A DNA stretch of 5,988 nucleotides from a virus (lineage: Duplodnaviria > Heunggongvirae > Uroviricota > Caudoviricetes): IMG/VR virus record IMGVR_UViG_2778260995_000009, positions 1 through 5,988 of that record. One strand, 5' to 3'. Position numbers and translations under genes: made by a program. Under the pieces are notes generated by a model. That model did no database searches and had not been told where the DNA came from. It worked only from the letters and a program-made list of their open reading frames with translations. This document shows positions 1-5,988 of the stretch, one piece after another (positions within the stretch are counted from its first letter, which is position 1; each line of letters starts with the position of its first letter).

Positions 1-582
1 GAATTATCGCTGGCTGAATTATCCTGGTGGGCGGTCTGCAATCAGGTGGCGGACGCGCTACCAGAGGCAGCATTACGCCGTTCGCTGGGGTTGCGTGCGG
101 AAAAAATCCGCTCAATGTACCGTGAAAGCGACATCGTACCGGGAGAGCAGACCGCCACCAGCATACTGAAGCAGCGCACAAAAAATATTGCGCCGTTGCC
201 TCACGCCCACCAGCAACAGAATCCACCACAGGAAAAGACGGTGGTCAGCATTGCCGTTGATCCGGAGTCACCGGCTCAGTATCTCCAGCGCCAGAAACCA
301 CAACGGGAAGAGATGCCTGTATACACGCGTTGGGTAAAAACGCAGAAATGCATGACGTGTGGCAATCAGGCAGATGATCCGCATCACATCATGGGTCATG
401 GACTGGGAGGGATGGGAACAAAGGCTGATGATTTGTTTGTTATTCCGCTGTGCCGTAAATGCCATAGCGAACTACACGCCGGGGTAAAAGATTTTGAAGA
501 AAAACACGGCAGCCAGCTGTTGTTGCTGATTCGTTTTTTAATGCACGCGAGAAATTCGGGTGTCCTGAAGTGGAAAGCATGA
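1..582 (+). CDS. NinG/DUF968-like phage protein with HNH-type zinc-finger motif (5' partial; frame is open from base 1)
   Basis: Frame 1 has no stop from position 1, so the gene begins upstream of the window. C-terminal motif CMTCG...DDPHHI...PLCRKCHSELH is a Cys/His HNH-like signature typical of DUF968 proteins found before rusA in lambdoid prophages. Stop TGA at 580-582 overlaps the rusA ATG region. Confidence 0.6.
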   Translation, partial: ELSLAELSWWAVCNQVADALPEAALRRSLGLRAEKIRSMYRESDIVPGEQTATSILKQRTKNIAPLPHAHQQQNPPQEKTVVSIAVDPESPAQYLQRQKPQREEMPVYTRWVKTQKCMTCGNQADDPHHIMGHGLGGMGTKADDLFVIPLCRKCHSELHAGVKDFEEKHGSQLLLLIRFLMHARNSGVLKWKA

Positions 583-948
583 ATGACTGAACGCATAGAA
601 TTTGTTTTGCCTTACCCGCCAACGGTGAACACTTACTGGCGACGTCGTGGCAGCACATATTTTGTATCAAAAGCCGGTGAGCGTTATCGCCGTGATGTGG
701 CGCTTATTGTTCGCCAGCAGCGACTGAAATTAAACCTGTCCGGACGGCTGGCGATAAAGATTATTGCAGAGCCACCGGATAAACGTCGTCGTGACCTGGA
801 CAATATCCTGAAAGCACCACTGGATGCGCTGACGCATGCCGGACTTCTCATAGACGACGAGCAGTTTGATGAAATCAATATTGTGCGCGGTCAGCTCGTT
901 CCTGGGGGGCGGCTGGGCGTGAAGATTTACAAAATTGAGAGTGAGTGA
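583..948 (+). CDS. rusA: Holliday junction resolvase RusA (crossover junction endodeoxyribonuclease)
   Basis: 121 aa, with LPYPPTVNTYWRRRG near the N-terminus, PDKRRRDLDN, DALTHAG, IDDEQ and GGRL matching my recollection of E. coli RusA (120 aa) including the acidic catalytic cluster. ATG at 583 immediately follows the upstream stop. Confidence 0.9.
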   Translation: MTERIEFVLPYPPTVNTYWRRRGSTYFVSKAGERYRRDVALIVRQQRLKLNLSGRLAIKIIAEPPDKRRRDLDNILKAPLDALTHAGLLIDDEQFDEINIVRGQLVPGGRLGVKIYKIESE

Positions 949-1502
949 TCGTAAATATGATATACCCGGAAATTACAGGCAAAAGCGGCGAGCATTTACG
1001 TCTAAAAACGCTGGAAGCCGTCTGGATCCAGGGGAAATTACGGATGTGGGGGCGTTGGTCGTACATAGGTGGTGGCAAACCAGGAAATATGTTCAATCAG
1101 TTGCTGGCATCCAAAACACTTACAAAAACTGCGATCAATGAAGCTCTGCGCAGAATAAAAAAATCAGGGATTGATAAAACTGAGCTGGAAGCGTTTTTGC
1201 GTGAGATGATCAACAGCAAGCAAAAGAGCGGGCTGGCTTATTGTACTGATGCCGAGGCGTTATGTATCGATCGGGTAATTAGTGAAGTGTTGGCAGAGCA
1301 TCCGGGATTGATTTGTATCCTCCGACAAAGATATGAAGGGCTGGGTATGAGCAAGCTGAAAATGGCAGAACAGTTAAAAAAGAATCACCCTGACTGGAGC
1401 CTGAAAACTTGTAGAAATCGCATTGATGTTTGGTTGGCGATGGCTGAAACCATGCTTTTCCTTCCAATGTGCGTGGCACTTCGGTGCTTTTCTGATAACT
1501 GA
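945..1502 (+). CDS. Late-gene antitermination protein Q (phage 82 / DLP12 QuuD-like family)
   Basis: Position directly after rusA. Motifs W..W near the N-terminus, CTDAEALCIDRV and a C-terminal helical region resemble QuuD-type Q proteins. Start is uncertain: GTG at 945 overlaps the rusA stop, alternative ATG at 957. Stop TGA at 1500-1502. Confidence 0.7.
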   Translation: MIVNMIYPEITGKSGEHLRLKTLEAVWIQGKLRMWGRWSYIGGGKPGNMFNQLLASKTLTKTAINEALRRIKKSGIDKTELEAFLREMINSKQKSGLAYCTDAEALCIDRVISEVLAEHPGLICILRQRYEGLGMSKLKMAEQLKKNHPDWSLKTCRNRIDVWLAMAETMLFLPMCVALRCFSDN

Positions 1503-1531
1503 TGATAGAAGTGCATCAGCTATCAATCTTG

Positions 1532-1560
1532 TTGACGTTCATCAAGGTCTGGACAATACT
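1532..1560 (+). promoter_or_regulatory. Sigma70-like promoter candidate: -35 TTGACG (1532-1537), 17-bp spacer, -10 AATACT (1555-1560)
   Basis: Hexamers and spacing read directly from sequence; lies between Q stop and the ATPase start. Could be the cassette's own promoter or the Q-dependent late promoter pR'. Confidence 0.3.
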
Positions 1561-1591
1561 TACGTTAAGTTCCAACATATGGAAGATAAGA

Positions 1592-2782
1592 ATGATATTT
1601 ACACGATTGAGATTTATCAATTTGTACGCTTTTGAGGATGCAGAGCTTAACCTGTCCTATCCAAGGAAACCTGTAAACATGCCTCTTGATGGGGAGTTTT
1701 TGGCTGGACGGCCTAAATTTTACTATAAAAAAGTCTGTATCATAACGGGGGGAAATGCTTCAGGTAAGACGTCACTAGGGCGAATTCTTTGTGGAATTCA
1801 GGTGTTTCTAAGAACCAAAGAGTTGCGGAGTAATCTGCGAGTGAATAATAAAAATAATGATGCTTCGTTTGAAGTGGACTTTGCTACGGAGGATCATTTT
1901 CATCATCGTTTGTATGTACGCTTTGCTACCAGTGAAGGCGGAGCGCACATAATCAAAGAAATTAAATATGGTTTTGTTCAAATAGCATTAAATGATTCTT
2001 GCCATAAAACCACAGAAAAACTGAATCAACTCTTTTCTGGAAGGGCCCCAGAAGATACAGAATATTTTTTTCAGGAACTAGCTACTGATAGCGAACCAGT
2101 TGTATTGGAGTTTTTCAAGCAACTTAAGTTTTTTGGTGGATGGTACTATTTGTTGTCTGAAACTAAAGAGAGTACCACTGCAATTTCAGGAATGAATAAA
2201 AATATTCTTGAAAGGATAATTCGCACTTTCGATTCAAGTATTATAGGAGTTACCGAGATGCTGGAGTCTGAAAGTGACGGGGATGAAAATAAATCATCTG
2301 CGGTTTATCTGATTAAATTTAAAAACTCTGATTCTCTTGTCGTTACCAGTAAAGGTGAAATAATTAACTCAGACCGTCTTTCTCGAGGAACATACGAGGC
2401 AGTGACGGTAGCGCATTTTATAAGCGCTATTATCTCTGATTGTGAAAGACTAGGTAAGCAATCTCTAATACCATCAATGACTTATTTTCTTGACGAGAAA
2501 TTGGCTTATACACATTCAGAGTTAGAGCGTATGATTGTGGCGCTGATTATATCTAATTTGAAAGAAAATACTCAGTTTTTCTATACAACGCATAACATGG
2601 ATATTTTTGAGTTGGATCTGCCTGTTCACTCGTTCATTTTTATTAAAAAAACGAAAGACTATTCGGAGTTTGTTGAAGCAAATTCAGTTGTTAAAAAAAA
2701 TGACCGTAGCATGCGAAACGCTGTTGAGAGAGATGTCTTTGGTGTCTTACCTGACACATCATTAGTATCGGAGCTACTCTGA
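1592..2782 (+). CDS. ABC/OLD-family P-loop ATPase (AAA_15/AAA_21-like), component A of a candidate two-gene defence cassette
   Basis: Walker A GGNASGKTS (codons at 1748-1771), Walker B YFLDE (2483-2497) and H-loop-like YTTHN (about 2581-2595) in the order expected for ABC-type ATPases. N-terminus MIFTRLRFINLYAF fits the usual start of this family. GGAAG Shine-Dalgarno at 1581-1585. The ORF track's 1502 start adds 30 implausible hydrophobic residues overlapping the promoter-like element. Gene is markedly AT-rich. Confidence 0.8.
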   Translation: MIFTRLRFINLYAFEDAELNLSYPRKPVNMPLDGEFLAGRPKFYYKKVCIITGGNASGKTSLGRILCGIQVFLRTKELRSNLRVNNKNNDASFEVDFATEDHFHHRLYVRFATSEGGAHIIKEIKYGFVQIALNDSCHKTTEKLNQLFSGRAPEDTEYFFQELATDSEPVVLEFFKQLKFFGGWYYLLSETKESTTAISGMNKNILERIIRTFDSSIIGVTEMLESESDGDENKSSAVYLIKFKNSDSLVVTSKGEIINSDRLSRGTYEAVTVAHFISAIISDCERLGKQSLIPSMTYFLDEKLAYTHSELERMIVALIISNLKENTQFFYTTHNMDIFELDLPVHSFIFIKKTKDYSEFVEANSVVKKNDRSMRNAVERDVFGVLPDTSLVSELL

Positions 2783-3315
2783 TGGCGGGGTTGTCTAAAA
2801 TAAGAATAATTTTTGTCGAAGGTGAAACAGAAAACTCTCTTTTTCTGAAGATGAAACAACAGAGAGTTATTGATGCCAAATCAATTGTAAAAAGAAACTT
2901 TTGGCAAGAGAGCATAAGAAATTATGCGATTACTATTCCGAAGGGAAGTGATATACTAATTGTCTTTGATAGTGATGAAGTGGAGCAATCTGCAAGATTC
3001 ATTGAAAATGTAAAGTTCCTTAAAAACAGAGGGCATAAAGTTTATCTTTTGCAGCAGAAAAGAAATTTTGAGGAGGAGTTGGCCTGGTGTTGCGGAATTC
3101 CTGTAAAAAAACTAATTGCTGGGTTCTGTGCAAAAAAAACATCGGGTATAAATGATTTCAAGAGAGATTTTATTGCTTGTAACAATCAACTTTCAAAGTT
3201 ACTGAAAATGGGCATGCAGGAAACTAAGTGGTTTACAAGAGATTTACATGCTGTATTGGAGCCTGTTGCAAGTTTTAAGTCATCTTTTTCTAAACATTTC
3301 AGGTTAACAAGATGA
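2782..3315 (+). CDS. Small TOPRIM-like protein (RloB/DUF4276/AriB-like nuclease candidate), component B of the defence cassette
   Basis: 177 aa. N-terminal IIFVEGETE (conserved Glu codons at 2818-2820 and 2824-2826) followed by ILIVFDSDE (DxD) matches the TOPRIM Glu plus DxD metal-binding arrangement. Start ATG overlaps the ATPase stop (TGATGG at 2780-2785); GGAG Shine-Dalgarno at 2770-2773. AT-rich like the ATPase. Confidence 0.7.
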   Translation: MAGLSKIRIIFVEGETENSLFLKMKQQRVIDAKSIVKRNFWQESIRNYAITIPKGSDILIVFDSDEVEQSARFIENVKFLKNRGHKVYLLQQKRNFEEELAWCCGIPVKKLIAGFCAKKTSGINDFKRDFIACNNQLSKLLKMGMQETKWFTRDLHAVLEPVASFKSSFSKHFRLTR

Positions 3316-3597
3316 TTTATTTTCTTTTTTGTTCAGCTGATTGTTTTTGTTTGTAAAATGTCTTGATTTTTTGCCAATAAACTGTTTCAATCCAGCTACG
3401 CTTCGCAAAGCTGTACCGCGAGGCGAATAGCAGACATGGACACCTGAAAGAATCCGCTTTATGCGAGTTTTTTTATGCCTGAAAAACGGCACAGAACATT
3501 AAACGCGCTGGTAGTTGTGAATACTGGTCTTTCAGCTTGCTGGCTTTTTCGACAAGAGGTATTGGTATATCACGTTAACCAGAAAAGGGGAAAAGGC

Positions 3598-3795
3598 ATG
3601 CTAAAACAGCAGGATATGACCGAAACCGCCAGAGTGGTGTTTAATGAATTAAGCGTCACCGAACCGGCGACCGTCGGGGAAATTGCGCAGAATACTTACC
3701 TTTCACGCGAACGCTGCCAGTTAATACTGACTCAGCTTGTTATGGCGGGTCTGGCAGATTATCAGTTCGGTTGTTACAGACGCCTTCCTCAGTGA
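3598..3795 (+). CDS. Small hypothetical protein (65 aa) with predicted helix-turn-helix / winged-helix character
   Basis: ATG at 3598 preceded by purine-rich Shine-Dalgarno AAAAGGGGAAAAGG. Segment TVGEIAQNTYLSRERCQLILTQLVMAGLA looks like an HTH recognition unit. The track's longer ORF from 3475 has no RBS and an implausible N-terminus. Fold assignment is inference only. Confidence 0.45.
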   Translation: MLKQQDMTETARVVFNELSVTEPATVGEIAQNTYLSRERCQLILTQLVMAGLADYQFGCYRRLPQ

Positions 3796-3850
3796 AGGTT
3801 TTTTAATTTGTGGTAATGGGCGGCTGGTGGGTGTTAGCGGCACCTGCCAG

Positions 3851-3899
3851 CCATCTGCTCATGCGTTGGGGTCACAAGCAAACCTCAGGCCCATCTGCT
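3851..3899 (+). repeat. Two direct repeats CCATCTGCT (3851-3859 and 3891-3899), 40-bp period, each followed by (A)TGCG
   Basis: Read directly from sequence; located in the intergenic region between the small HTH gene and the methyltransferase start, so possibly operator-like sites. Confidence 0.3.
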
Positions 3900-3945
3900 T
3901 TGCGCAAAAGCGGTATGAGCCTATCAGAGAAGTGCTTATTGATCT

Positions 3946-4995
3946 ATGGCCAATACTGTAAAAATATCCAGTTGTGAGTTAATCAACGCTGATTGCCTGG
4001 AATTTATCCAGACCTTACCGGAAAATTCTGTCGATCTGATAGTCACAGACCCGCCATACTTTAAAGTGAAGCCCGAGGGCTGGGATAACCAGTGGGAGGG
4101 CGACGATGATTACCTGAAATGGCTGGACCAGTGTCTGGCGCAGTTCTGGCGGGTACTGAAGCCTACCGGAAGTCTTTACCTGTTCTGTGGTCATCGCCTG
4201 GCATCTGACACCGAAATCATGATGCGTGAGCGCTTTAATGTGCTGAACCACATTATCTGGGCGAAGCCGTCCGGACGCTGGAACGGGTGCAATAAGGAAA
4301 GTCTGCGGGCGTATTTTCCGGCAACAGAGCGCATTCTGTTTGCAGAACATTATCAGGGACCGTATCGCCCGAAAGATGATGGCTATGTGGCACAGGGGCG
4401 CGAGCTAAAACAGCACGTCATGGCCCCGCTGATTTCTTACTTTCGTGATGCGCGTAAATCACTGGGAATAACGTCAAAACAGATAGCGGAAGCCACCGGA
4501 AAGAAAAACATGGCTTCGCACTGGTTTGGTACCAGTCAGTGGCAGTTACCGAACGAGGGTGATTACAACAAATTGCAGGCGTTGTTTGCGCGTGTTGCGG
4601 CAGAAAAACATCAGCGCGGGGAACTGGAAAAGCCACACCACCAGCTGGTCAGCACATACAGTGAGCTGAACCGGCAGTATACGGAACTGCTGAGTGAATA
4701 TAAAAATTTGCGGCGGTATTTCGGTGTGACGGCGCAGGTTCCGTACACCGATGTCTGGACGCATAAACCGGTGCAGTACTATCCAGGGAAACATCCGTGC
4801 GAAAAACCGGCAGAAATGCTGCAGCAGATAATCAACGCGAGCAGTCGTCCGGGAGACCTGGTTGCAGATTTTTTTATGGGTTCAGGTTCAACGGTAAAAG
4901 CGGCGATGGCACTGGGGCGTTGTGCGATTGGTGTTGAGCTGGAGACAGGACGTTTTGAACAGACAGTCAGGGAAGTTCAGGATTTAATCGTTTGA
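3946..4995 (+). CDS. DNA N6-adenine methyltransferase (beta-class, motif IV before motif I), phage orphan-type
   Basis: DPPY catalytic motif near the N-terminus (VTDPPYF) and FxGxG SAM-binding motif near the C-terminus (DFFMGSGST). This order and spacing is typical of phage-encoded N6A methyltransferases. An in-frame TGA immediately upstream fixes the start at 3946. Confidence 0.85.
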   Translation: MANTVKISSCELINADCLEFIQTLPENSVDLIVTDPPYFKVKPEGWDNQWEGDDDYLKWLDQCLAQFWRVLKPTGSLYLFCGHRLASDTEIMMRERFNVLNHIIWAKPSGRWNGCNKESLRAYFPATERILFAEHYQGPYRPKDDGYVAQGRELKQHVMAPLISYFRDARKSLGITSKQIAEATGKKNMASHWFGTSQWQLPNEGDYNKLQALFARVAAEKHQRGELEKPHHQLVSTYSELNRQYTELLSEYKNLRRYFGVTAQVPYTDVWTHKPVQYYPGKHPCEKPAEMLQQIINASSRPGDLVADFFMGSGSTVKAAMALGRCAIGVELETGRFEQTVREVQDLIV

Positions 4996-5044
4996 AACGG
5001 ATGAGATTGCAGAATTAATTACGCACCATTATTATTCTGCTCCC

Positions 5045-5120
5045 GGCCCTTTAGCTCAGTGGTGAGAGCGAGCGACTCATAATCGCCAGGTCGCTGGTTC
5101 AAATCCAGCAAGGGCCACCA
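5045..5120 (+). tRNA. ileZ: tRNA-Ile2 (anticodon CAU, lysidine type; ileZ-like), 76 nt with encoded CCA
   Basis: Hand-folded cloverleaf: acceptor GGCCCTT/AAGGGCC, D arm GCTC/GAGC, anticodon loop CTCATAA (CAT at 5078-5080), T arm GCTGG-TTCAAAT-CCAGC. Resembles E. coli ileX/ileY. CAU could also be Met; Ile2 is inferred from similarity. Confidence 0.85.
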
Positions 5121-5127
5121 TCACATA

Positions 5128-5204
5128 CCGCCATTAGCTCATCAGGATAGAGCGCCAGCCTTCGAAGCTGGTTGCGCGGGGTTCGAGTCCTCGATGGCGG
5201 TCCA
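5128..5204 (+). tRNA. argN: tRNA-Arg (anticodon UCG), 77 nt with encoded CCA
   Basis: Hand-folded: acceptor CCGCCAT/ATGGCGG, anticodon stem CCAGC/GCTGG with loop CTTCGAA (TCG at 5162-5164), T arm CGGGG-TTCGAGT-CCTCG. The C1-G72 start is unusual, so the 5' end could be off by 1-2 nt. Gene symbol assigned by position only. Confidence 0.75.
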
Positions 5205-5217
5205 TTATCTGTACCCT

Positions 5218-5294
5218 GCGTTGTTAGCTCAGCCGGACAGAGCAATTGCCTTCTAAGCAATCGGTCACTGGTTCGAATCCAGTACAACGCGCCA
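5218..5294 (+). tRNA. argO: tRNA-Arg (anticodon UCU), 77 nt with encoded CCA
   Basis: Hand-folded: acceptor GCGTTGT/ACAACGC, anticodon stem ATTGC/GCAAT with loop CTTCTAA (TCT at 5252-5254), T arm ACTGG-TTCGAAT-CCAGT. Gene symbol assigned by position only. Confidence 0.8.
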
Positions 5295-5444
5295 CGCTTA
5301 TTTTTCCAGGCTCGCTTTGGCGGGTCTTTTTCATATCCGCGTCACGTCAGGCGCACATCAAACAAACACAGAATCTTTCAGGGGCGGGGTAGTCAGTGTG
5401 ACGTTCTCTGGAGACCTGTCACTTCCGGGGATAGGTGTTTTTAC

Positions 5445-5468
5445 GGGCTGCTGGTGGCCCTTTTTTAT
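5445..5468 (+). terminator. Possible intrinsic terminator: GGGC...GCCC short stem followed by TTTTTTATTT
   Basis: GGGCTGCTGGTGGCCC (5445-5460) then a T-run at 5461-5470. The stem is only about 4 bp, so this is weak. Confidence 0.25.
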
Positions 5469-5485
5469 TTACAGGAGAAAGAAGT

Positions 5486-5878
5486 ATGTCTGAACCCTTA
5501 TCCGGTTCCGGTACGGCTGCGGCGCTCGGCGGGGCGACGGTATTCGGGCTGTTTACCGGAACGGATTTCGGGATTGTGTTTGGTGCATTCGCCGGGGCGT
5601 TGTTCGTGGCCACGATGCCGCAGGCGTTTTCAGGCTGGCGAGTGGCAGCACATTTTCTGGTGTCATTTATTGTTGGCGTGCTGGGTGCACGTGCGTTGTC
5701 AGCCTGGGTTGCATCAAAAACAGGTTATGACGGTACATCGGCGGATGCACTGTGTGCGGTGCTGGTGTCAGTGATGTCGGTAAAGATTCTGGCATTCATC
5801 CACCAGCAGGATATTGCAGCGCTGATATCCGGTTTGTTCTCCCGCCTGCGGAGTGGAGGTGGTGGCAATGCCAGATAA
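5486..5878 (+). CDS. Hypothetical Gly/Ala-rich membrane protein, possible holin-like lysis protein
   Basis: ATG at 5486 with strong Shine-Dalgarno AGGAGA (5473-5478). Several hydrophobic Gly/Ala-rich stretches (GGATVFGLFTG, IVFGAFAGALFVA, FLVSFIVGVLGA). Sits where lambdoid phages place lysis genes. No specific family recognised. Confidence 0.45.
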   Translation: MSEPLSGSGTAAALGGATVFGLFTGTDFGIVFGAFAGALFVATMPQAFSGWRVAAHFLVSFIVGVLGARALSAWVASKTGYDGTSADALCAVLVSVMSVKILAFIHQQDIAALISGLFSRLRSGGGGNAR

Positions 5879-5988
5879 CCTTTCTGAATTACTGAACGTG
5901 GCGTTATGCACGGTTATCGTGCTGACGCTCTTTTTTTATCGTCGCCGTGATTCCAGACATAAACCGCTGGTGTCATGGCTGGCCTGGC
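5866..5988 (+). CDS. Small hypothetical membrane protein (3' partial, runs off window), start overlapping upstream stop
   Basis: ATG at 5866 overlaps the preceding gene's 3' end (stop TAA 5876-5878). Hydrophobic stretch VALCTVIVLTLFFY followed by RRRDSRHK fits a single-pass membrane topology. Not in the ORF track because it is truncated. Confidence 0.3.

Follow-up and report, generated by a model that had tools for sequence, protein, structure and literature searches.

M.EcoGII-type DNA methyltransferases are widely used tools that are harmful to cells, and no account of how prophages keep them silent was found in the open-access literature that we searched. How might a temperate phage control such an enzyme? 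The question is raised by a 5,988-nucleotide (nt) stretch of a Caudoviricetes virus (IMG/VR record IMGVR_UViG_2778260995_000009, positions 1 to 5,988), the whole of which is called the window here. In this window a methyltransferase gene is preceded by a small open reading frame (ORF), and the 150-nt spacer between them contains an exact 9-mer repeat. The initial annotation proposed that the small ORF encodes a regulator, with the repeats as its operators, forming a control module for the methyltransferase. Our analysis upholds a regulatory region with a linked small winged-helix gene, but neither the operator mechanism nor a role like that of the C proteins of restriction–modification (R-M) systems. 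Judged from its pattern of sequence change, the spacer is a conserved structured mRNA leader, constrained as folded RNA rather than as a protein-binding DNA repeat.

The spacer is 72–83% identical across genera, compared with 38–59% at the third codon positions of the flanking genes. The elements of the leader and the start region that follows it are:

3782-3805, + strand: P0, a terminator-like hairpin (GCCTTC/GAAGGT) with the stop codon of the small gene in its loop and a T-run after it
3815-3821, + strand: r1 (AAUGGGC), a nearly invariant switch segment complementary to both r2 (3857-3862) and r4 (GCCCA, 3889-3893)
3822-3833 with 3841-3852, + strand: P1, a 12-bp hairpin that holds the first two bases of 9-mer copy 1
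3854-3862 (r2) with 3874-3882 (r3), + strand: P2, with a conserved GGUCAC loop at 3870-3875; its 5′ arm is most of 9-mer copy 1
3888-3921, + strand: P3/P3a, an irregular hairpin in which r4 (3888-3894) pairs with r5 (3915-3921) and an inner stem is formed by 3895-3900 with 3907-3912
3933-3948, + strand: expression platform and translation start; 3933-3944 is paired with 3870-3880 when the leader is in its more stable fold, and the ATG at 3946 lacks a Shine-Dalgarno (SD) sequence

The helices P1, P2, P3 and P3a were defined by eye and afterwards tested against controls. In an alignment of 28 sequences 84% of cells are paired, compared with 29–46% when the partners are slid; 13 pairs have changed on both sides, and none of 500 shuffles reaches the observed value. 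With 65 distinct sequences 82.6% of cells are paired (28–43% with slid partners) and 25 of the 34 pairs have changed on both sides. The covariation score is 0.294 as against 0.12 for shuffled alignments, and once again no shuffle in 500 attains the observed values, but this alignment was fitted to the structure and its sequences are related, so that the shuffle controls overstate the significance. That counts against our interpretation, and it is therefore the slid controls and the independent double changes that carry weight. The de novo consensus of RNAalifold recovered part of the structure only. A covariance model built on 52 sequences finds exactly one match per locus, on the gene strand every time, and the window leader folds at −64.1 kcal/mol (z = −3.5). 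No covariance model of Rfam 15 matches the window leader or nine divergent loci at E up to 1. The leader appears to be undescribed, both there and in the literature searched, although absence does not prove novelty.

Ten of the 12 pairs of P1 have changed on both sides, and 93% of its cells are paired across the 65 sequences. The arms are GGCUGGUGGGUG/CACCCGGCCAGCC in enterics, GACUGUAAAAGUG/CACCUUUACAGUC in Proteus and CUGCAGCAUG/CAUGCUGCAG in phiKO2-like phages; the arm sequences of Proteus, Plesiomonas and the N15-like phages are entirely different. P2 has double changes at six of nine pairs, one of which exists as four pair types. For P3 and P3a together the count is 3 of 13 pairs in alignment A2, while the wider set A4 gives 4/7 for P3 and 5/6 for P3a. 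The change from G-C to A-U at the base of P3 arose independently in Scandinavium and in the Proteus clade. P0 also co-varies, with stems GCCUCC/GGAGGC, CUGCCA/UGGCAG and CUCCGC/GCGGAG in different genera. It is called by a terminator pattern scan (3782-3799 plus TTTTTTAATTT), and it lies where phages lacking the small gene have a strong terminator. With its G+C-containing hairpin and T-run we regard P0 as a putative intrinsic terminator. Apart from the pairing, the 5′ arm of P1 includes a Chi sequence, GCTGGTGG, at 3823-3830, which is kept in most Enterobacteriaceae; P1 of the Proteus and N15-like copies is unrelated.

Where does this leave the repeat? The window contains exactly two copies of CCATCTGCT, at 3851-3859 and 3891-3899, with the 40-nt spacing originally described. 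Copy 1 consists of the 3′ end of P1 and the 5′ arm of P2, and copy 2 of the 5′ arms of P3 and P3a. Conservation in related phages had been suggested as a check on the operator idea. The ORF is conserved, but the 9-mers are not; both copies are present in just three of the 65 distinct leaders, all of them E. coli-type, and in E. albertii and all other genera the second site is GCCCACTGCT or GCCCACCGCT. A 9-mer repeat arises in 2.5% of shuffles of the 150-nt spacer alone. The whole window contains four 9-mer pairs spaced by 60 nt or less, a number attained in 13.6% of shuffles (mean 1.7). As evidence the repeat is weak, and on sequence comparison the 9-mers are pieces of the RNA fold.

The segment r1 can pair in two ways. 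The r1:r2 helix is 97–99% paired, with all changes compatible, and the r1:r4 helix is paired to 100% and has a single double change. Pairing of r1 with r2 blocks P2, and the 3′ arm of P2 and the GGUCAC loop (3870-3880) pair with 3933-3944, corresponding to −13 to −2 of the methyltransferase gene. The alternative fold is a three-way junction of r1:r4, P1 and P2. The leader is thereby predicted to have two mutually exclusive folds, with the start region paired in the more stable one. Constrained folding of the window sequence gives −62.9 and −58.9 kcal/mol for the two states, with a median difference of about −2.5 over 62 sequences, and both folds occur as the minimum free energy (MFE) structure among close homologues. 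The start region is paired in the MFE and centroid structures of the window. The helix that pairs it (3870-3880 with 3933-3944, designated HG) is 90% paired and has four double-change pairs, with compensatory changes AAGC/GCUU, GGAC/GUUC and GGGC/GCCC. The L2-r3 segment and the start region are predicted to form a duplex of −12.0 kcal/mol in the window (z = −2.1 against shuffles), with z ranging from about −1.3 to −5 in the loci that carry the small winged-helix gene (class a below). This duplex beats shuffles in 58% of contexts, including those of Mom and Com, where GGUCAU pairs with AUGACC.

The initial annotation was right that the ATG at 3946 has no SD sequence at a usable distance, and this absence is kept in all relatives examined. 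The nearest purine run is GAGAAG at about −22 to −17. There is no earlier start for the methyltransferase because in-frame stops lie at 3916 and 3940. From the 3′ end of the leader model to the ATG the distance is 13 nt in almost all loci. A GATC at 3941-3944 stands immediately before the ATG (CTGATCTATG) and is kept in almost all class-a loci, while the P2 loop is GGTCAC or GATCAC. Both sequences are accounted for by the pairing, and a link of the GATC sites to Dam methylation is conceivable.

Coding interpretations of the leader were rejected. A leader peptide beginning at the r1 AUG (3816, within a 55-aminoacid (aa) ORF at 3810-3977) is discounted because the length of that ORF is not conserved, being 7 codons in Salmonella, 19 in Proteus and 37 in a phiKO2-like locus. 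An upstream ORF from the ATG at 3915 fails likewise; the ATG or GTG is the 3′ arm of P3 and is missing in some Providencia copies. In the window the small ORF is in frame with the methyltransferase, with intervening stops TGA 3793, TAA 3814, TAG 3835 and TGA 3916, but this frame relation is not conserved and we dismissed read-through or frameshifting. The leader is not one of the anti-small RNAs (anti-sRNAs) AsxR and AgvB, nor StxS, which are different elements at other positions.

What do the two genes on either side of the leader encode?

3533-3574, + strand: conserved block in the 5′ untranslated region of the small gene, CTTGCTGG..ACCAGAGTTATCTGTATGTCAC, common to the upstream regions of 38 loci
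3598-3795, + strand: gene for a 65-aa winged-helix protein (phrog_331), with an ATG start and a purine-rich ribosome binding site (RBS) stretch, AAAAGGGGAAAAGG, at 3583-3596
3946-4995, + strand: gene for a beta-class N6-adenine DNA methyltransferase of the M.EcoGII/M.EcoGI family, 349 aa

The methyltransferase matches Pfam N6_N4_Mtase (E 6e-45) over residues 29-340, and is 89% identical to the enzyme of phage 1720a-02. The latter is very similar to M.EcoGII, itself 349 aa in length (PMC5778455). A helix-turn-helix (HTH)-like stretch at residues 165-193 fits the target recognition domain (TRD) described in PMC11551740, and the window enzyme has the M.EcoGII-type domain layout given there. We assign it to the M.EcoGII family from the order of motifs (DPPY ... 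TRD with HTH ... FxGxG), the length and the identity to the 1720a-02 enzyme, the link to M.EcoGII running through 1720a-02 and not through direct alignment. It shares with M.EcoGII and M.EcoGI its length of 349 aa, domain order and prophage origin, and sequence-independent adenine methylation would be predicted from the family. In the window and in annotated relatives the gene is followed by tRNAs, stx or lysis genes, and by no adjacent nuclease gene.

According to Murray et al., the lysogen does not express M.EcoGII, and constitutive expression of the enzyme is deleterious to the cell (PMC5778455). Such properties point to a need for tight control. That paper describes the enzyme and discusses no upstream control, the word 'upstream' being absent from it (PMC5778455). 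A study of the ST131 methylome also inferred tight control of an M.EcoGI-like enzyme (PMC4659465). No described regulator or leader of these methyltransferases was found in the open-access literature searched.

The small ORF with its good RBS is present as first reported, and comparison indicates that it is a genuine gene under strong purifying selection. Between genera pS is 0.61–0.84, with synonymous sites saturated, compared with pN of 0.08–0.18. The protein belongs to phrog_331 of the PHROG collection (E 1e-37). Its homologues form 334 clusters at 90% identity, in Escherichia, Salmonella, Klebsiella, Citrobacter and others, but the family is narrow, with 85 representatives at 50% identity. 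The suggested HTH-like segment is real, with sub-threshold profile matches to winged-helix families and a winged helix in the predicted structure. An AlphaFold (AF2) model built from a deeper alignment has pLDDT 93.4 and pTM 0.81, replacing an earlier model from a shallow alignment with pLDDT 69. The topology is H1-S1-H2-H3-S2-S3 with a β-hairpin wing. Foldseek matches it with probability 1.0 and TM 0.77–0.80 to the winged helices of OhrR, MarR and IclR, and its matches include the winged-helix dimerisation domains of S-adenosylmethionine (SAM)-dependent O-methyltransferases. At the superfamily level we can be confident that the predicted structure is a canonical winged helix. Like the MarR, TrmB and IclR proteins it has the H1-S1-H2-H3-wing core (OhrR, TM 0.80, rmsd 1.9 Å; IclR-type, TM 0.77), but with only 65 aa the model is that core without dimerisation helices. 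Pfam matches to TrmB, MarR and HTH_24 all fall below the gathering cut-offs (TrmB 18.0 bits versus 25.6, MarR_2 14.7 versus 27), and no NCBIfam model matches. The PGAP name 'TrmB family transcriptional regulator', given to some homologues where others are labelled 'hypothetical protein', therefore overstates the membership. A profile of the small protein had no significant match among PDB sequences. Conservation is highest in RCQLILTQL, the putative recognition helix. The protein is acidic in most homologues (pI ∼5), and has two cysteines, C40 and C59.

The small gene is closely tied to its neighbours. It is followed by a methyltransferase homologue in 31 of 34 loci from ∼15 genera, from Escherichia to Proteus, Providencia and Plesiomonas, with a spacer of 134–153 nt wherever the small ORF is intact. 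It also adjoins the leader and methyltransferase in ∼74 of 80 loci and in 1873 of 2142 E. coli genomes. The module is carried by 2142 of the 5426 complete E. coli genomes (∼40%). The converse does not hold. The protein is nearly always found with leader and methyltransferase, but these often occur without the protein, which is therefore an add-on. The same leader and methyltransferase are found in many phages without the small gene, and this excludes the small protein as the core of the control. What follows the late terminator in the window is ATGCCTGAAAAACGGCAC, similar to the start of the leader in N15-like phages, ATGCCTTGAAAATGGGCGC; this likeness is consistent with insertion of the small gene into an ancestral terminator–leader arrangement.

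In some E. coli prophages (L003, 3220-3506, and L004, 3220-4266) the small gene has no methyltransferase; homology ends inside the leader, at the equivalent of window position 3834 or 3868, and a DUF3927 gene or an AraC-family regulator comes next. At these points recombination replaced the methyltransferase. Upstream of the small gene, the hairpins in the 3533-3574 block appear to co-vary, and the block may be a second regulatory RNA element. The phages phiKO2 and N15 encode gp51 (L189 and L190, 1203-1430), a 75-aa protein annotated as a winged HTH, whose gene lies immediately before the late promoter; no sequence similarity between gp51 and the small protein could be detected.

How general is the leader? 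We searched for it from the methyltransferase side, and by a protein-independent DNA pattern filtered with the covariance model. The arrangements found are:

(a) leader with the winged-helix gene, in Enterobacterales and Plesiomonas
(b) leader without the small gene, in the N15-like phages phiKO2, PY54 and N15, where a terminator and a promoter annotated as 'putative late promoter' immediately precede it
(c) leader followed by an ORF of 38–41 aa for a Com-like zinc ribbon and, after it, the methyltransferase, in Vibrio phages
(d) leader before a Mom-family gene (PF25680, E 5e-7)
(e) leader before a C5-cytosine methyltransferase-like gene (weak Pfam match, 68-aa fragment)
(f) leader ∼80 nt before holin genes

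The best Pfam match of the Com-like ORF is Zn_ribbon_Com, below threshold (E 0.0016). The loci of the Mom, C5-methyltransferase and holin contexts are L200, L228 and L264; L230, L191 and L217; and L223, L212 and L193. The loop GGUCAU is complementary to the start-codon region, AUGACC or AUGAC, in the Mom, C5-methyltransferase and Com contexts. The leader co-occurs with several Q families. Bacteriophage lambda itself has a reduced copy comprising P1 and P2 only, with a GGUCAC loop, at 45,019-45,108 (L311, 1220-1309), 77 nt upstream of S and scoring 32 bits; no function is assigned to it in the literature searched. The r3 segment of lambda, GAACAAATC, is able to pair with GGATTTGTTC, which lies ∼27 nt further downstream (∼45,117-45,126). 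The K-12 prophages DLP12 and Qin lack the leader. Related methyltransferases (L168, L170, L171, L181, L185 and L187) are preceded by a second conserved leader, unrelated to the first (GATGCCTTGAGTACCTGAGACCC-hairpin-GGAGAGGAAGC ... GTATTCAAGGC), and the 5′ half of this second leader stands before the main one in the Vibrio-phage loci (L162-L166, ∼1170-1225).

How might the leader act? On balance we favour, by a small degree, a cis-acting translational gate for the first late gene, the winged-helix protein being a lineage-specific accessory. We infer the gating, its direction and any part played by the protein; the gene, the fold, the RNA covariation, the alternative pairings and the genetic contexts are what the analysis observed. 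After the late terminator would come the winged-helix gene, then the ∼140-nt leader (P0, r1, P1, P2, P3/P3a and the platform), and then the SD-less methyltransferase ATG. In the first fold, r1:r2 pairing would free the 3′ arm of P2 and the GGUCAC loop to mask −13 to −2, and translation is predicted to be off. In the second, the r1:r4 three-way junction with P1 and P2 would let P2 tie up the sequestering arm. Such a gate could keep a cell-damaging methyltransferase silent on transcripts that leak through the late terminator, and could limit or time its synthesis after induction and the action of Q. The winged-helix protein, inserted between terminator and leader, would most plausibly modulate the expression or the activity of the methyltransferase.

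A number of observations weigh against this model. The direction of the switch comes from thermodynamic folding alone, and must be read as a prediction. In the N15-like phages the start region has no significant complementarity to the L2-r3 segment (z ∼0), and a pairing of r5 with the platform predicts a different logic, so that one and the same mechanism does not suit every clade. The distance from leader to start codon is 77–80 nt in holin contexts and in lambda, which suggests a function beyond masking of the start site. As the start-masking helix is not evident in the N15-like and holin contexts, the logic may differ by clade, or the leader may act chiefly at another level, such as transcription-coupled folding or RNA fate. 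We found no feature of the leader specific to loci with the small gene. An intact small gene persists in E. coli prophages in which the methyltransferase and most of the leader have been replaced. Finally, the small protein, with its pI of ∼5, is unlike Com, which has a pI of 9.6, and its acidity and its persistence without the methyltransferase weigh against a simple Com-like role.

The comparison with Com arises because the closest known system is com-mom of phage Mu. There the gene for the small Com protein lies upstream of the late, toxic mom gene; an inhibitory stem masks the start of the mRNA, and an alternative structure relieves it. The window shares with it a small gene directly upstream of a late, cell-toxic DNA-modification gene, and a start region that can be masked. 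Some related loci, all of them in Vibrio phages, have a Com-like zinc-ribbon ORF between leader and methyltransferase, and others have a Mom-family gene after the leader; the presence of both with the same leader strengthens the analogy. There are differences nevertheless. The window protein is an acidic winged helix with two cysteines, whereas Com is a basic zinc ribbon with four, in two CxxC pairs, and our leader, 140 nt long and made of several helices, is not known to be related to that of mom. In the window the inhibitory pairing is predicted, and its opening by the small protein would be a candidate mechanism by analogy with Com.

Foremost among the alternatives to the translational gate is that the leader acts alone, while the winged-helix protein either binds or inhibits the toxic methyltransferase, senses adenine methylation of DNA, or is the product of an unrelated first late gene. 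We think this possible but rather unlikely. The acidity of the protein, the O-methyltransferase dimerisation domains among its top structural matches, the intact copies without a methyltransferase and the lack of leader features specific to it would all be at home in such a scheme, and winged-helix domains are known to sense N6-methyladenine (m6A) in DNA (PMC11037411 and a bioRxiv preprint). M.EcoGII is also active, and harmful, when cloned alone (PMC5778455). On the other hand the putative recognition helix RCQLILTQL is the most conserved part of the protein, as expected of a nucleic-acid reader with a conserved target.

A broader extension of the gate, which we put forward tentatively and think unlikely to be right in full, would make the leader an unrecognised class of riboregulator in lambdoid and N15-like phages, lambda included. 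Its input in trans, whether a metabolite, a dedicated small protein or RNA polymerase itself (through its speed or its modification by Q), would license translation of lethal first late genes (adenine methyltransferase, Mom, C5-methyltransferase or holin), and the winged-helix protein of the window would be the counterpart of Com without a zinc ribbon.

A somewhat less probable view is that the leader is a general element of late transcripts acting on transcription or RNA fate, whether as a readout of Q-modified polymerase, in processing or stability, or in protection from Rho. It would explain why the leader is in every case the next element after the late terminator (or a hairpin equivalent to it), accompanies several Q families, stands at a distance from holin starts, and is found in reduced form upstream of lambda S. 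It would not explain the fixed 13-nt spacing to the ATG, or the complementarity to the start in most methyltransferase, Mom and Com contexts, and there is no U-tract after P1 or P3 to suggest attenuation. The same neighbourhood, from the Q-dependent promoter and terminator to the first late gene, holds the lambda pR′-tR′ short transcript (6S RNA, or StxS) and the sdi hairpin of S, in which RNA structure close to the start codon tunes translation of a lethal late protein. Our leader differs from both, being downstream of the terminator that ends the short transcript, and in lambda sdi follows the reduced leader copy.

It is quite improbable, in our view, that the leader is a riboswitch whose r1:r4/P1/P2 junction binds a small molecule such as SAM, S-adenosylhomocysteine (SAH) or a host-state signal, thereby selecting the fold. 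The junction segments AAUGGGCG, CAU and ACCAAGGCCCA are invariant while the stems vary, two competing folds of similar energy adjoin an expression platform, and SAM is used by two of the enzymes encoded downstream. But the alternative pairings largely account for the invariant segments, no riboswitch in Rfam matches, and the downstream genes include Mom and holins, with no obvious metabolite in common.

Lastly, a C-protein-like transcriptional controller that binds the two CCATCTGCT repeats as operators is very improbable, and on the sequence comparison largely refuted by the missing conservation; for all the DNA-binding potential of a winged helix, the exactness and 40-nt spacing of the repeat and the tight linkage of the genes, the 9-mers lie inside co-varying RNA helices, the spacer is also conserved in phages without the small protein, a scan found no sigma-70-like promoter at 3250-4050, and there is neither a restriction gene, nor an inverted-repeat C-box, nor an Xre-type HTH. 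The likeness to R-M systems is confined to a small HTH-type protein encoded beside a DNA methyltransferase and proposed to set its expression; C proteins are of Xre type and ∼80–100 aa, and the window methyltransferase is an orphan phage enzyme of a non-specific family. The sequence TGTGAAAAT before r1 was considered as an extended −10 and rejected, being transcribed, paired in the RNA and also present where there is no small gene.

If the translational gate is correct, a conserved switch-like RNA directly before the start codon would provide a concrete and testable answer to the silencing of the methyltransferase. The finding of the same RNA before three unrelated DNA-modification genes, with a reduced copy before the lysis gene S of lambda, suggests an overlooked general control of late genes in temperate phages. 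Stx phages of which phiP27 and 1720a-02 are examples have the leader on the same transcript as stx.

The window as a whole is the late-control region of a lambdoid prophage, and across 3560-4100 it is 99.8% identical to E. coli B7A. Around the small ORF (3598-3795) and the methyltransferase (3946-4995) the gene order is:

46-582: DUF968 gene
583-948: RusA gene
945-1502: Q antiterminator, DUF1133-type
1502-3315: AT-rich, AbiL-like island
3445-3475, + strand: degenerate tR′-like late terminator, a weakened stem followed by seven T
5045-5294: three tRNAs
5486-5878: holin

At the place matching 3445-3475, ∼120 nt upstream of the small ORF, relatives have a strong terminator, GCCCGCTTTTTGCGGG + T7, and in close relatives the hairpin is GCCCGC...GCGGG-T7. 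The layout of terminator and small gene in these relatives is that of a Q-dependent late promoter with its terminator. The window has CCGCTTTATGCGAG + T7, which a terminator scan does not call, and its degeneration could make late transcription leakier in this prophage. Homology to phiP27 begins directly after this terminator. The small ORF had also been described as the first gene of host-like composition after the island. As a description this is accurate, with the island ending near 3315 and the normal post-Q region running from ∼3355, but it explains nothing about the gene. In island-free relatives Q abuts window position ∼3355. The island contains two genes resembling the AbiL abortive-infection system (AbiLi, E 2e-25; AbiLii, weak), and is flanked by the Q gene on one side and, at ∼3355-3366, by what remains of the 3′ end of another Q allele. 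At the other end of the window, there is no toxin gene 3′ of the tRNAs, only the holin. The tRNA cluster itself (5045-5294, anticodons CAT, TCG and TCT) corresponds to the cluster of ileZ-argN-argO type found before stx in phiP27 and other Stx phages.

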